Positions 1 through 9,000 of a stretch of DNA of 52,953 nucleotides are shown here, piece after piece. The position numbers were made by a program. This DNA is from a virus (taxonomy: Duplodnaviria > Heunggongvirae > Uroviricota > Caudoviricetes): IMG/VR virus record IMGVR_UViG_2531839474_000009; one strand, written 5' to 3'. Each line of letters starts with the position of its first letter. Within the stretch, counting starts at the first letter, position 1.

Positions 1-3000
1 ATGTGGGTCAATAAGTATATTGACGATTGCACTGATGAGGATTTAAACGATCGTGACTTTATTGCATCAGTTGTTGACCGGGCTATTTTTCATTTCGCGA
101 TTAATAGTATATGTAATCCTGGGGATAATAAAGATGCAATGCCCATTGAACAATGTACTTTTGATGTAGAAACTAAGAATGACCTTCCCTCCACGGTTCA
201 GCTATTTTATGAGGAATCTAAGGATAATGAACCTTTAGCGAATATACATTTTCAAGCAATAGGTTCTGGTTTTTTAACGTTTGTTAATGCCTGCCAGGAA
301 CATGATGACAACAGCTTAAAATTATTTGCTTCGCTGTTAATTTCACTTTCATATTCTAGTGCCTACGCAGATTTATCAGAAACAGTGTATATTAATGAAA
401 ATAATGAGAGCTACCTGAAAGCTCAGTTTGAAAAATTATCTCAACGTGATATGAAGAAGTACCTGGGAGAGATGAAGCGTCTGGCTGATGGGGGAGAAAT
501 GAATTTTGATGGCTATCTGGATAAGATGTCACATCTGGTGAATGAAGGAACGCTCGATCCTGATATTTTAAGCAAAATGCGAGATGCTGCACCACAATTA
601 ATTAGCTTCGCGAGGTCGTTTGACCCAACCTCAAAGGAAGAGATTAAAATACTTACAGACACTTCTAAATTAATTTATGATTTGTTCGGGGTTAAATCGG
701 AGAAATAATATGTGAAGTTCTTCGATAGTATGGAAGGCATTATATAAAAGGACCCAATATTTATTGGGTTCTTTTTTCTCTATCAATGCTATTAGCAGGG
801 AGATATATCACCAGAGTTTAATGTGTGATTTTTTATTTATCGTCGAACCTGGATTGTTTATCATTGGCCTTAACAAAGTTAACGGCTAATAAGATTATTT
901 CCATCACTTCGTGAGAGCTTCATGCCTTGAGAGGATCTCAATTTTCTTTTGCAATGAGACAGGCGCTTCCTGTTGTTATGGTATAGTACCCCGCTATTGA
1001 GCCTCCTGAATAGTGATGCTGAATAACATAACCCCATGATATATCGATAAAATAATCTCTACATTTGAAAATGCACGGTAATTCTGAAATGCAAAAAATC
1101 AACCAAACCAGCGCAATGCCTGAAAAAACTGACGTTCACTGGAGTGGTCGGTTTAGCGTTGCACCAATGCTCGATAGGATGTATCGTTTTTGAAAAACAA
1201 GTAGTTATACACTTTGTGGGAGCCTATTGGGAACCCGGTGTTTTCATTTCAAGGTGTAATCCATGCCGGGCATCAGAATGAGATATAATGAGATTTTTAG
1301 TGTTCCGCTTGAGAGTCTATGATGCTTACCCTAGACGAGATAGGTCAATCTGTACGTAACAATATCCAGTTGATTATTGATCATGTCGGCTTACCTCTTG
1401 CTGTTGGTCCGCTCAGTGATGATGATTACAAGATTCTGTGTGGTGGCTATGGTGAGCTTGAATGGGACTATGCGTTAAGCACCTATGGCAACTCCAGAGA
1501 AAAGTATGAGTTCTGCATAAAACTTGTTCAGCAAGGTCGGGTTCAGGGAATACCATCAGGAGCAGCAATTTGTGTTTATGGGGTTGAAGAAAACATCTTT
1601 CATATCCATATGATCGAAAGGTTTTCTAGAGAAGATGAATCTCACCCATTGAAAGGGCGCATGGTTTTACTCACTCTTATGAGTGCTTTTATATTTTGTA
1701 AAGCTGTTGAATGTAAAGTTGTCCACATTGTAGAGCCAGTACCAGAACTGGTGCAGTATTACGAGTCTTTTGGTTTCCGCATGGAACAGTGCGGTTATGT
1801 GATGTCTGCAGTCATTGATGAGCTGCAGGATATCTTTCTTAAATTTGCTCAGTAGGTATAGACGAGAAGGGGCTACAAATTGTAGGATACCCGTCCAGAT
1901 TACCTTAAAGGTACATCTATGGCAGTCGTTTTGTGCTTAAACTACTAAGAAACGATGTCACCAATCGACATGATCGATTGGCATAAGTTAGCGAAACAAG
2001 CTAGCTTTAAAGAGAGGGTTAGAGACGCCTTTACTGTCTCGGGAGTTTTCTATGAAAGATCAAAAAGCAACCAAGCCACAGGTTAAGTTCGACACAATGA
2101 AAGCATTCGCAGGTATGGGTGCTGCTGTTGAAGTTCTGATGAAGGCTGCTCCTAATGCGTTCACTCACGCTACTGTCTCTGGTAAAGAGCAGCAGGGTAA
2201 GCTTCGTCGTCGCAAAGCAGCATGATCATAGCTGGTGCTTTTTGAAAACCCGCCTTTAGGCGGGTTTTTTCTTTAGTGATGTTCTTTGCCCTTCTGTTTG
2301 CTTGTTCTGACCTGTTCCCACTCGATACGTCCTTCTTCTCGTCTTTTGTCTATGTATTCCGCAAGATCCTGAATATTGATGCAACGTTTTGCTTTTTGTG
2401 ATGTGCCGATGCGATATGTTGGAACGGGCAACTTACAAGCGTTTGCTTTTGCTTCTGCCGTGGCTGGACTCATGCCAAAGTACTTTTGGCTAACTGCTGA
2501 GAGTTCAATGTTAGGGGTATTGAATTCAGCCATCAGTAAAAACAAGGTGTTCATAATTTTCTCCATCAAAACCGGCTGCACCCGGGAAAATCATAATTCT
2601 GTGCTGGTGGCAGGAATTAGTTTCTGCCAGATAGCGGAAACATATTTTGCCTGATGACGGGCATCAGCCAGGGCGTTGTGCCGTTCGCCATCGAAAGGCA
2701 TGTCCATTTTGGGGTCGAATCCGATGGAACGCCCAAGCGTAACGATCGTGCGTACATCGTGGTCATTCCAGTACGCCCACGGGCAGATTTGTCCTGCTCG
2801 CTCGTAAGCTCCACGTAAAATTACGTTGTCGAAGGTGGCCCCGTTACCCCAGACTTTTAAATATTTTGTATTGTCTGCATGCTGATTAATGAAATGGCTC
2901 AGTTCAGAGAGTGCATCGCTGATCGACAAAGTATCATCAATACAGATTGCAGCTCGTGCTTCAGAGCTCTGTTTCAACCACCACAGGATGGTATCGCCGT

Positions 3001-6000: not shown

Positions 6001-9000
6001 AAACCCTTCCATTTCGAAAACATTCATGCGCATTTGCGTAACTCCGATAACTCGTTAAAACGTTCCATAAACATCCCATAGGCATGGCCTGGCGACAGTG
6101 GAATAACTTTGAACATCTCTGTCGCCGGGATGCCTTCCAGTACAGGCCAGAAAGAGCCATCATCAAGCCCGAGATCGCGGCGTTCGGTTGCCAGCATGAT
6201 GAGATCGGCATATTTCACAGGCGTGCTCATAACCGGGGGTAACCCGTATTTCTCACGGATTACGGCGTCTATTTTTTCTTCCATCCGTTTATAGTCAGGA
6301 AGAAGGCGTTTTAGTGGCGCGGGGATGTCCTGGCAATATGCTTCTGTTGCATCATGCATTAACGCTTCAAAAGCAAATTCCTGCGGCACCAGCTGGCTGC
6401 AAAGCACCGCATGTTGGGCGACACTGTAGAAGTGAGAAAGATGACCGGCAAAGCGGCAGATATTTGAAAGGGAAACCGCGATATCGTTAATCACGATGTC
6501 GTCTTTATTTATCTTGTCATAATAAAAATGCTTCCCGGAAAAAGTTTTAATAAATGACATTTTGTTCTCCACGCATATGCGCTGCACCGCGCTGAGTTTG
6601 GGTAAAAGGAAGCCATCACCATCCGGTGATTATTGAGTTAATTACGTTTCCATAAATGCCCCCGCAGGGGCATTTGCAGTAATGAAATCAGGCGGTGAAA
6701 GTACCAATAAAGGTTTCTACTTTGCTGTCTTTGAATTTCTCAACAAGCAGATCACGAAATTCGTTAGCCATATCTTCCTGCACCGCTTCCAGCTGAATAA
6801 TGCGCAGAACCAGTACAGGACGATCGCCAGTGATAATGCTGAGGCGTAATTTAAACGGACGTTCTTTCAGACCTTCAAACGGAACGCATTTAAATTCAAA
6901 TGCCACAGGCATAATGTCTTTGGTCTTCGCTTCGACAGACTCCATCAGGGAGCGTTTGCCGCTGAAGTCATTATCTTCAAAATCAGCGGTCTGGTTTGCT
7001 TCAATCGTGATTTTACGGACAGCCGCAGCCGCTTTTGTTGCCTGAATGGCGTCACCATTAGCATCAAAGCCCACAAGGTAGTCGGCCCAGTCTTCAATCC
7101 ATTCTGCCAGTGACTTCTGGGAGTTACGCTCGCCATTAACAGACAACAGAGCAGAAAACGGTGCTGTCTTTTTTAGTTTGAGAGTGGCGGTGTTATCTGC
7201 GTGACCTGGTTCATCAATAGTACCCAGGTTAAGCACACTGACGGCACGCATATTATCGGCATCGATAAAGCAGCGGGTGCCTTCATCTGCAAGATCTTTA
7301 GAATAACGGGTAAAGTCATCGATGCTGGCAGTGGAAAGCGCACCACGGAAACGGAAGCGATTTAAATTAAATTTTTCCAGATCATGAATGCGGAAATTCT
7401 CAGGCAATGCCACAGCATCGGCACCAATCTTACTGATAATTTCATTAACACCCTGAGCAGAAATAAGGGCATGGATTTGATTAATTGCGGTTGCGTCTAA
7501 GTTCTGAGACATAATAAGTCCTCACTATATAAAGATATTCAGTGATGAGATAAATAATCAGTTAATTAAGAACGATATTAATGACCTGCTGCGCGGAGTT
7601 TTCCGTCAGGTTCACCGGCAAGAGTCAGTAATTGTCCCTGGTCTTCCTGCAGAATAGTCAGGCGACCACCGCGATTGACATACATCGGCGTTTCGGTGGT
7701 GTCTTCTTCGGAAATTTTCCCGCGGTTAGTCGGGCGAACATATGAGAGTTTGTGTTTTATTTTCACACGGTTCTCATCAAACGGTTCGATTTCCAGGTTG
7801 AGCGAGACCTTACCTTTGGTTTTCGTGTTCATCACACCGGAAGCGACTTCACTGAGAACAGCGCCGATTTTGGTTTCAAATACGCCGCCGTCCAGCTCCC
7901 CGATAAATGCCTGCACATCAGTACTGCGTTCGCTAGCCATTTTGCTGCTCCTCATCATATCGACCCTGCAAGGTCGGTTGGTTTCTCCACAAAACAGAGA
8001 AGAACACCTGCGGTGGCAGCCGCCCGGATGGATTGGGTTATGAGCCCGTCGTCCGGTGATGCTCTTCTCTGTTTTGTAAAAAGAGCGGTACCAGCCGGAA
8101 GCAAGTGTACAAACTGGTACCGCCAAAGCAGTGGCTGTTGTGGTGACCGGTGCTGATCTCCGGCTTGCGGTTATTTCAGACTCTCACGGGCGTTTAATTG
8201 CCCCGCCGAACAGCTCTTTTCCGCAATAGCTGCAATGTCTTTCGCGCATCAGCCTGCGCATTCACCACAACGCTGAGAGCACTTAGCCAGTTACGGCACC
8301 ACACTTTGTCGCGGTTACATAAATGCCCTCATCGTTGCACCCTGGTCTCTTCCCAGGTGTCAAACCGAACCGCCACGCTGGTTAGGCGTCTTATCAGCAT
8401 CATCATTGACTTGCACATTCCGGCTACCTGGTTTGTTTGCCCGAGCAAGGAGTGGATTGTCCCCTTTAACGTCCCCAGACCGCTAACGACGCATGTGCCA
8501 TACGCCGTGTTACAACCAAATTTTGTTTAATCTTGCCTGTGACATGTTTCTTTTAGATACATTATGTATCTCAAGGGTACATTGTCAAGTATAAAAAAAC
8601 CTGCCGAAGCAGGTTATAAATATTGATTAGGCCTTTATTTTGTATCTTCTTGGTTTTCCTGAGAAAATTACTGTACCAATTATAGAGCAATTACCGTTGA
8701 TCTTAATGTAAGGTTCAGGCCAGTTTGGGTTTAATGCTTTGAGGTAACGCTGTGTTCCATCTTCTATCAACCGCTTAAAGGTGGTTTCGCCTGTATCGTG
8801 CATCAATGCAATAACGTCGTCACCGTGGCAGGCAGGGACTTCAGGATCTACAAAAATCATGTCTCCCGGGCGGTACTCATCAATCATTGAATCACCAATC
8901 ACCCGCAAGATATAAGTCATTTCGCCACAGGGTACAGGGCAGGGATAAGTTTCTGCTGTGCTCAAATCAACCTCAGAATAGCCAACTTCTTTCCATGCTC

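Follow-up and report, generated by a model that had tools for sequence, protein, structure and literature searches.

Nuclease-like genes in the early-left operon of a Chi-rich lambdoid prophage are probably independent accessory cargo rather than a Red substitute

The window, that is, the whole 52,953-base stretch of DNA analysed in this study (IMG/VR virus record IMGVR_UViG_2531839474_000009, Caudoviricetes), is an Escherichia coli-type lambdoid prophage of ~50 kb of the SfV/CPS-53/mEp460 type. A 112-nt direct repeat at 1068–1179 and 51537–51648, whose copies are 81% identical, duplicates the 5′ end of dusA and brackets the prophage. An intact dusA is found after the prophage at 51540–52577, and the 5′ end of dusA is taken as the integration site. 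The int and xis genes are located at opposite ends of the prophage. The segment of interest, 2591–6560, had been described in an initial annotation as a nuclease-rich leftward early operon that encodes a DEDD exonuclease, a PD-(D/E)XK motif protein, an HD-domain hydrolase, Ead/Ea22 and a small methyltransferase candidate in place of lambda exo-bet-gam and that could be a recombination or anti-defence module. Its boundaries and orientation were confirmed exactly: the exonuclease gene has its stop at 2591 and yfdR its ATG at 6560, and all eight open reading frames between them are on the minus strand, joined by overlaps of 1–10 nt or gaps of 1 nt. These genes are predicted to make up two-thirds of the pL (early-left) operon, at its promoter-distal end; the features of this operon are as follows in the direction of transcription.

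8627..9301, minus strand: CI-type repressor; the translation has a helix-turn-helix region and, C-terminal to it, an S24 LexA-like part
8598–8615: terminator-like hairpin after the cI-type gene, with the promoter directly downstream (order read from the gene map)
8561..8588, minus strand: pL-like sigma-70 promoter, TTGACA-16-CATAAT, with 11/12 consensus matches (predicted function)
7581..7940, minus strand: yfdP, product 99.2% identical to K-12 YfdP
6688..7512, minus strand: yfdQ (DUF2303), product 99.6% identical to K-12 YfdQ
6024..6560, minus strand: yfdR, HD-domain 5′-deoxynucleotidase and DnaA-binding homolog, product 98.3% identical to K-12 YfdR
5518..6033, minus strand: 171-aa YfdS/EaE-like mosaic protein (PHROG 614/368)
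5036..5521, minus strand: 161-aa class I S-adenosylmethionine-dependent methyltransferase with a DPPH motif (PADLOC, PHROG, motifs)
4386..5039, minus strand: 217-aa Ead/Ea22-like coiled-coil protein, N-terminal half matching PF13935
3869..4384, minus strand: 171-aa PD-(D/E)XK-fold protein, MmcB/Hjc-like (PHROG 9263/631; motifs, model)
3471..3872, minus strand: 133-aa EaA/DUF551-like protein resembling the N-terminus of P22 EaA (PHROG 60/660)
3163..3474, minus strand: 103-aa hydrophobic small membrane protein (PHROG 2531)
2591..3163, minus strand: 190-aa DexA-like DEDDh 3′-5′ exonuclease with an Rv2179c-like domain (Pfam, PHROG, DexA alignment)
2273..2581, minus strand: PrtN-family excisionase (xis), last gene of the operon (Pfam, PHROG)
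2244..2269: GC-rich hairpin bordered by T/A runs, immediately beyond the excisionase gene, with a terminator-like score on the plus strand
3180..5897, minus strand: mosaic cargo cassette of 2.7 kb, where mEp460 holds different genes

Counterparts of the CI-type repressor in related loci were annotated as XRE family or peptidase S24 repressors. The hairpin at 2244–2269 is a candidate bidirectional terminator of the leftward operon, for which the role on the minus strand is predicted. No RNA element was found by Rfam inside 2591–6560, and NCBIfam returned nothing useful for nine of the ten operon products. The rightward operon encodes CII-like, Ash, replication, Dam, LexA-like, RusA, KilA-N, DUF968/HNH and Q proteins.

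Similar to the early-left operons of CPS-53 (KpLE1) of K-12, mEp460, SfV, ST64B and LLS, that of the window has the order yfdP-yfdQ-yfdR ... xis on the same strand. The similarity to mEp460 was highest in the flanks (97%), which include the exonuclease and the PrtN-type xis: the identities were 96.8% for 1068–3179, which runs through xis and the exonuclease gene, and 97.5% for 5898–8527, which contains yfdR-yfdQ-yfdP. Between yfdR and the exonuclease gene, however, the window carries the genes for the PD-(D/E)XK protein, the 217-aa Ead and the DPPH methyltransferase, whereas mEp460 has those for a DUF551 protein, another Ead and small hypothetical proteins, and CPS-53 of K-12 has only yfdS-yfdT. 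The conserved backbone yfdP-yfdQ-yfdR ... exonuclease-xis flanks a slot of interchangeable ‘ea’-type cargo. Of 5426 complete E. coli genomes, 4449 contained parts of the 6-kb region, while at least 80% of it was covered in one of these genomes and in no phage record. Exact copies of the exonuclease and PD-(D/E)XK proteins were each found in at least 1000 contigs and those of the methyltransferase in 48 contigs.

Co-occurrence was assessed in 240 viral loci, 80 for each of three anchors, in which each operon gene was scored by tblastn. In the loci anchored on the exonuclease, where the anchor was 96–100% identical and which are thus close relatives rather than independent cases, xis was found in 80/80, yfdR in 77, yfdQ in 69 and yfdP in 62. 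The PD-(D/E)XK gene was found in only 5 of these 80 loci, the methyltransferase gene in 10 and this Ead gene in 10, and none of the 80 possessed the full gene set of the operon. The loci anchored on the PD-(D/E)XK gene, whose anchor identities ranged from 49 to 74%, contained the exonuclease in 5/80, the HD protein in 6/80 and the methyltransferase in 3/80. Their commonest same-strand neighbours encode replication, NinB-like and NinG-like proteins, which indicates that most phages carry the PD-(D/E)XK gene in the rightward operon, within its nin region. The methyltransferase-anchored loci contained the exonuclease in 11/80 and the PD-(D/E)XK gene in 2/80. Moreover, lambda exo/bet, erf or recT were also detected in some of the PD-(D/E)XK and methyltransferase loci. 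Given this coexistence, the PD-(D/E)XK and methyltransferase genes do not replace Rec modules. The nuclease-rich combination of genes at 2591–6560 is best read as a rare mosaic.

The PD-(D/E)XK protein itself had no Pfam or NCBIfam match, and its single-sequence search against PDB returned noise. When 1.84 billion cluster representatives were searched with a profile, however, 3207 relatives were identified. Among 46 relatives with identities of 34–88%, D40 was invariant and E37, E53 and K55 were at least 90% conserved; together with E7, these residues make up the putative active site. The AlphaFold model, with a predicted local distance difference test (pLDDT) score of 92.8, has an alpha-beta-beta-beta-alpha-beta core consisting of helix 5–18, strands 23–26, 41–45 and 48–54, helix 58–64 and strand 80–85. 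D40 precedes the second strand and E53-x-K55 ends the third, as expected for the superfamily. The fold neighbours are PD-(D/E)XK enzymes, and those found with Foldseek among viral models were annotated as MmcB-like. Lack of motif conservation in homologs had been named as the result that would overturn the initial annotation. The catalytic motifs were conserved, and the PD-(D/E)XK assignment therefore stands.

Weak Pfam matches among the 46 relatives were to Hjc (24/46) and MmcB-like (15/46), with a best E of 2.9e-4 for MmcB-like PF06319, and the family profile matched PDB 3dnx with an E of 8.6e-4. Membership in PF06319 was rejected, as the protein of the window had no Pfam match at E ≤ 1. Different from MmcB-like proteins (PF06319, PDB 3dnx) and archaeal Hjc, the family also possesses a conserved C-terminal helical region with an SALRR motif and a conserved GMGDWRF segment. 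It is thus placed, on the basis of these profile comparisons, as a sister family related to MmcB-like proteins and not as a member. The product of the window was 100% identical to that of phage P7 and several Stx phages. At 50% identity, the family falls into more than 3,000 clusters, which have no Pfam model and are called ‘hypothetical’ in lambdoid phages, P7, Ackermannviridae and Vibrio phages. By analogy with MmcB (PMC9578287) and Hjc, the PD-(D/E)XK protein is probably a metal-dependent endonuclease whose substrate is probably damaged or branched DNA.

The identification of a small methyltransferase also held. Its motif I (LDMCCGS) and motif IV (DPPH) were invariant or nearly so among 20 homologs. 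It matched over its full length the PADLOC models MTase_II (E 7.3e-74) and oMTase (E 1.5e-49), as well as PHROG 954, ‘DNA methyltransferase’ (E 2.8e-88). Thus, by these matches, it is assigned to the REBASE-derived family of Type II/orphan DNA methyltransferases. The AlphaFold model of this 161-aa protein, built from a shallow alignment of 20 sequences, had a pLDDT of 53.9, and neither single-sequence nor profile searches of PDB gave a significant match. Motifs of the DPPH type also occur in RNA and protein amino-methyltransferases. Plausibly, this orphan enzyme serves anti-restriction by modifying phage DNA. Two more DNA methyltransferase genes are found in the window, a Dam-type one (PF05869) at 13835–14521 (+) and an N6_N4_Mtase one (PF01555) at 18595–19647 (+), which brings the total of the prophage to three.

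A methyltransferase gene (5036–5521) close to a nuclease gene (3869–4384) could also be read as a small Type II restriction-modification pair. In the window, however, the Ead/Ea22 gene lies between the two; the closest fold of the nuclease is that of an MmcB-like repair protein and not of a restriction enzyme; and the nuclease family is found alone in virulent Ackermannviridae and Vibrio phages. Given that the partner was present in only 3/80 nuclease-anchored and 2/80 methyltransferase-anchored loci, this pairing was rejected and is considered extremely improbable.

The DEDD exonuclease of the initial annotation was identified with confidence. Its product matched Pfam Rv2179c-like PF16473 over profile positions 1–177 of 177 with 252.9 bits (cut-off 27; E 1.9e-75). 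It was 28% identical to T4 DexA (BLASTP E 4e-15) and matched PDB 8KEL with an E of 6.5e-9. The DEDDh residues D7 and E9 (Exo I, DxE), D112 (Exo II) and H162 and D167 (Exo III, Hx4D) were invariant and aligned with those of T4 DexA, which is annotated as a DEDD exonuclease that digests 3′-5′. In addition, W132, the equivalent of DexA W152, was conserved. The exonuclease is shorter than T4 DexA (190 versus 227 aa) and lacks the DexA loops. No relevant publication was retrieved by a literature search on Rv2179c-like phage exonucleases.

Defence against T4 has been reported for one E. coli homolog of DexA, EcD (PMC12153337). DexA variants of this HREX type have lost the DexA tetramerisation residue D90 and kept W152 and D169, which recognise hydroxymethylcytosine (hmC). 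Similar to T4 DexA and EcD, the exonuclease of the window has the DEDDh fold and catalytic residues and the W152 equivalent. Different from EcD, which has lost the equivalents of DexA tetramer residues S87 and D90, it has kept both as S80 and D83, and it has S146 at the position of D169, the placement of which is uncertain in an alignment with 28–31% identity. With S80/D83 kept and a serine at the D169 position, the exonuclease departs from the published EcD/HREX signature.

These comparisons bear on the suggestion that 2591–6560 is a defence or anti-defence island, in which the methyltransferase would act against restriction, the exonuclease against T-even phages with hmC (HREX-type) or in host DNA scavenging, and the PD-(D/E)XK protein against foreign DNA. 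In prophages, the accessory genes of variable slots frequently have defence-related roles. The PADLOC MTase_II and orphan methyltransferase matches with the DPPH amino-methyltransferase motif, the conserved catalytic residues and W132 of the exonuclease, and the protection against T4 by EcD (PMC12153337) are all consistent with such roles for single genes, for which anti-defence remains plausible. PADLOC, however, matched the exonuclease only with a generic DEDDh model and gave no match for the PD-(D/E)XK, HD, Ead or remaining proteins. Further, S146 together with S80/D83 leaves the exonuclease without the features reported to confer hmC specificity on EcD, and the genes do not co-occur. Moreover, as the gene order suggests, the pL operon would be silenced by CI in the lysogen. 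Nothing indicates a coordinated module, and an island of this kind is regarded as doubtful.

The HD-domain hydrolase is YfdR, which was 98.3% identical to YfdR of K-12 over 178/178 residues. The H...HD...D pattern can be read from its sequence, with HD in ALMHDATE, the flanking H in SVAQH and the D in KYADL. YfdR matched PDB 2gz4 with an E of 1.8e-13 and Pfam YfbR-like with 24.2 bits, slightly below the cut-off of 25.9. It is therefore predicted to be a phosphohydrolase, i.e., a deoxynucleoside monophosphate (dNMP) phosphatase or nucleotidase, and not a nuclease. YfdR was previously described as a 5′-deoxynucleotidase homolog that has low nucleotide affinity and binds DnaA, and yfdQR with yfdS or yfdT blocked replication initiation at oriC (PMC4776307). 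A YfdQ homolog was found in PDB 9O7M (E 2.9e-44), where the presence of 36 chains suggests that it forms a large assembly; a literature search returned no paper describing this structure. No defence-system model of PADLOC matched YfdQ. YfdQ was also considered as a hidden recombinase and rejected, as it coexists with complete Rec modules and has no signature of a single-strand annealing protein (SSAP).

The reported activities raise the question of whether the exonuclease, YfdR and YfdQ form a host-takeover or nucleotide-economy unit that halts replication in the host and alters the dNMP pools derived from degraded DNA. In favour of this suggestion, the exonuclease and yfdR genes were together in 77/80 close relatives, YfdR is related to a 5′-deoxynucleotidase and binds DnaA, yfdQR with yfdS or yfdT blocks initiation (PMC4776307), and T4 DexA is reported to have a role in host DNA scavenging (PMC12153337). 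The co-occurrence, however, is limited to near-identical relatives, and the two genes separate in more distant loci. Furthermore, the reported nucleotide affinities of YfdR are low (PMC4776307), and a dNMP phosphatase would waste precursors rather than salvage them. Thus, a unit of this kind is unlikely.

The remaining cargo is related to classical accessory genes. The Ead/Ea22 protein, whose identification in the initial annotation was confirmed, matched PF13935 at residues 2–95 of 217 with 92.2 bits (gathering threshold 27; E 5.7e-26). Over 94 aa it shared 50% identity with the lambda Ea22 N-terminus, while its C-terminal half was unrelated to the C-terminal domain of lambda Ea22. Ea22 was described as pro-lysogenic (PMC10834534). 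The first 45 residues of the 171-aa protein at 5518–6033 shared 87% identity with the N-terminus of YfdS from K-12, and part of its remainder resembles P22 EaE. Similar to lambda exo-xis and the P22 ‘ea’ region, the interval between the recombination position and xis in the window holds early-left genes that are mosaic and non-essential, and tblastn detected homology to lambda Ea22 and to P22 EaA, EaD and EaE. Given this homology, the cargo is classed with the classical exo-xis/ea accessory regions (PMC10834534). Different from lambda, however, orf60a, orf61, orf63 and ea8.5 are absent, and the genes for the exonuclease, the PD-(D/E)XK protein and the methyltransferase are present instead.

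The absence of exo-bet-gam was confirmed. Searches of all 52,953 bases by tblastn found no homolog of lambda Exo/Bet/Gam, P22 Erf/Abc1/Abc2 or Rac RecT/RecE. Among the products of the leftward operon, no family of annealing proteins, single-stranded DNA-binding proteins (SSBs) or RecBCD inhibitors was found in Pfam or PHROG, with Sak and Sak4 checked through Pfam and PHROGs only. Neither a 5′-3′ double-stranded DNA exonuclease (lambda Exo/YqaJ or RecE) nor an anti-RecBCD protein (Gam, Abc2) was found in the window, of which the sole exonuclease is of the 3′-5′ DEDD class. The only likeness to lambda Red (Exo-Bet-Gam) or Rac RecET is thus the position in the early-left operon: lambda Exo and RecE digest 5′-3′, whereas the exonuclease of the window is of the opposite class, and no Red or RecET component has a homolog. 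Among the genes of the prophage, only two are recognisable as recombination-related, namely those for a RusA Holliday-junction resolvase at 14841–15230 (+) and a DUF968/HNH nuclease at 16061–17056 (+), in the nin-like region.

In addition, the window is rich in Chi. The Chi octamer GCTGGTGG occurs 21 times, compared with 1.86 ± 1.39 expected and a maximum of 6 in 100 shuffles; 16 of the sites are on the plus strand and 5 on the minus strand. All but one are in the following cluster.

9876..23545, 15 sites on the plus strand and 5 on the minus strand: Chi cluster of 20 sites, stretching from the early right operon across the lysis genes and into the terminase genes

The 21st site is at 2603–2610, and no Chi is found in the 28 kb beyond the cluster, which runs up to and into the terminase genes at 22.4–25.0 kb. 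Within 9876–23545, Chi is the commonest 8-mer with 15 copies, followed among unrelated 8-mers by one with 6; among the 168 octamers of Chi composition, the runner-up has 3 copies.

Previous results showed that class A lambdoid phages have no Rec module, carry 3–25 top-strand Chi sites toward the right DNA end and grow with the aid of RecBCD, and that their early-left operons often contain homologs of yfdR/yfdQ/yfdP (PMC12315714, Genome Res 2025). By gene content and by the number, orientation and clustering of Chi, the window agrees with this ‘no Rec module, Chi-rich’ class. Similar to class A (LLS functional type), it lacks a module of annealing protein, nuclease, SSB and anti-RecBCD functions, has an early-left operon with yfdR/Q/P, and has 16 top-strand and 5 bottom-strand Chi sites clustered toward the packaging end. 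Different from the phages of this class, the window is a prophage with three insertion sequence (IS) copies and not an isolated phage. The Chi excess together with the lack of a Rec module points to reliance on host RecBCD, and the Rec module would be absent because the Chi cluster recruits host RecBCD.

These results decide how far the operon may be regarded as standing in place of exo-bet-gam. The absence of those genes is observed, but a replacement of Red is not supported, and neither is a recombination module in general. As a novel module, the DEDD and PD-(D/E)XK proteins would process DNA ends and an unrecognised protein, e.g., YfdQ, would anneal them. The genes do occupy the usual place of a Rec module in the early-left operon of a prophage with no known Rec gene, some lambdoid Rec modules include DnaQ-like nucleases (PMC12315714), and YfdQ and YfdP have no known function, with 36 chains of a YfdQ homolog assembled in 9O7M. 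However, no product has an SSAP, SSB or anti-RecBCD signature, and digestion in the 3′-5′ direction would strip the 3′ tails that annealing of the Red type requires. The exonuclease gene adjoins xis instead of taking the canonical mid-operon place, and stray DnaQ-type nucleases near int/xis were explicitly not counted as Rec genes in the published survey, which also judged yfdR/Q/P unlikely to be hidden recombination genes, as phage ArgO145 carries this cluster alongside a full Rec module (PMC12315714). Moreover, the HD protein is predicted to be a dNMP phosphatase, the genes assort separately, relatives of the PD-(D/E)XK and methyltransferase genes share phages with exo/bet, erf or recT, and the Chi excess indicates reliance on RecBCD. 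Thus, a module replacing Red is very improbable.

Instead, 2591–6560 is very likely the distal portion of the pL operon in a prophage of the SfV/CPS-53/mEp460 type, made up of independent accessory genes that do not substitute for Red, while host RecBCD-RecA is recruited by Chi. Several points weigh against this interpretation. First, YfdQ and YfdP are proteins without known function. Second, the exonuclease and yfdR were found together in almost all of the loci anchored on the exonuclease, which are near-identical and non-independent, and the two may be functionally linked. Third, the peptide pattern with which the PD-(D/E)XK loci were retrieved did not recover the closest copies in E. coli, as the protein of the window has DL where the pattern has DF, and the sample of loci is thus skewed to more distant relatives. 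Finally, with three IS copies the prophage is perhaps defective, so that the present selective role of its Chi sites is uncertain.

Gene identities, conserved motifs, mosaicism, absence of Rec genes and Chi excess are observed here, and the course of events proposed below depends on the biochemical roles that we infer for the individual products in this phage. Transcription would probably start at the pL-like promoter at ~8.56 kb, left of cI, and the transcript would contain yfdP-yfdQ-yfdR, then the 2.7-kb exchangeable ‘ea’-type cassette and then the exonuclease and excisionase genes. Upon induction or infection, this transcript would express a set of separately acting accessory functions. YfdR, YfdQ and a partner of the YfdS/T type would damp DnaA-dependent initiation of the host, and YfdR would dephosphorylate dNMPs. 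Proteins of the Ead/Ea22 type would bias the lysis-lysogeny decision, the orphan DPPH methyltransferase would modify DNA and thereby allow evasion of restriction, and the DexA-like exonuclease would trim or degrade DNA 3′ ends. For recombination, the phage would rely on host RecBCD-RecA, recruited by the oriented Chi cluster near the packaging end.

Operons of this kind, most of the gene families in them and the explanation for why such phages lack Red have already been described. The MmcB/Hjc-like PD-(D/E)XK fold and active site for the widespread PHROG 631/9263, which are unannotated in Pfam and NCBIfam, represent a modest new annotation. In addition, the window provides a clear example that nuclease-like genes clustered in the early operon of a lambdoid prophage can be mosaic cargo and not a functional module, and, as an unselected prophage, it independently confirms the recently reported association of a missing Rec module with a Chi cluster of strong orientation. 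A more specific and quite unlikely proposal is that the PD-(D/E)XK family provides a structure-specific nuclease for branched or damaged replication intermediates, working with host RecBCD in Rec-less, Chi-rich phages, or, alternatively, that the xis-adjacent DexA-like exonuclease is a general prophage-borne nuclease defence. If either were true, a function would be given to a very common dark-matter phage gene.

Three other features of the prophage were recorded. An IS3-family element is present in three copies at 12054–13267 (+), 32687–33900 (−) and 49442–50655 (−), each of which contains orfA/orfB and an ALIL frameshift pseudoknot (RF01497, 120.9 bits each). One copy interrupts the replication region, one interrupts the tail region and one adjoins a truncated integrase gene (50681–51451). 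Given these three copies, the prophage is probably defective. A gene at 45304–48708 (−) encodes a 1134-aa DUF4765 protein (PF15962, 1708 bits); it is located in an island of 30–40% GC at the tail-fibre end and is likely a horizontally acquired moron. Finally, two RNAs were identified by Rfam within or beside the Ash-family gene at 10184–11020, namely the Hfq-binding RNA isrK (63.7 bits) at 10544–10620 (+) and a C4 antisense RNA (82.8 bits) at 10645–10732 (+). Together, these two RNAs are predicted to be an immunity element of the P1/P7 type inside the lambdoid early right operon.

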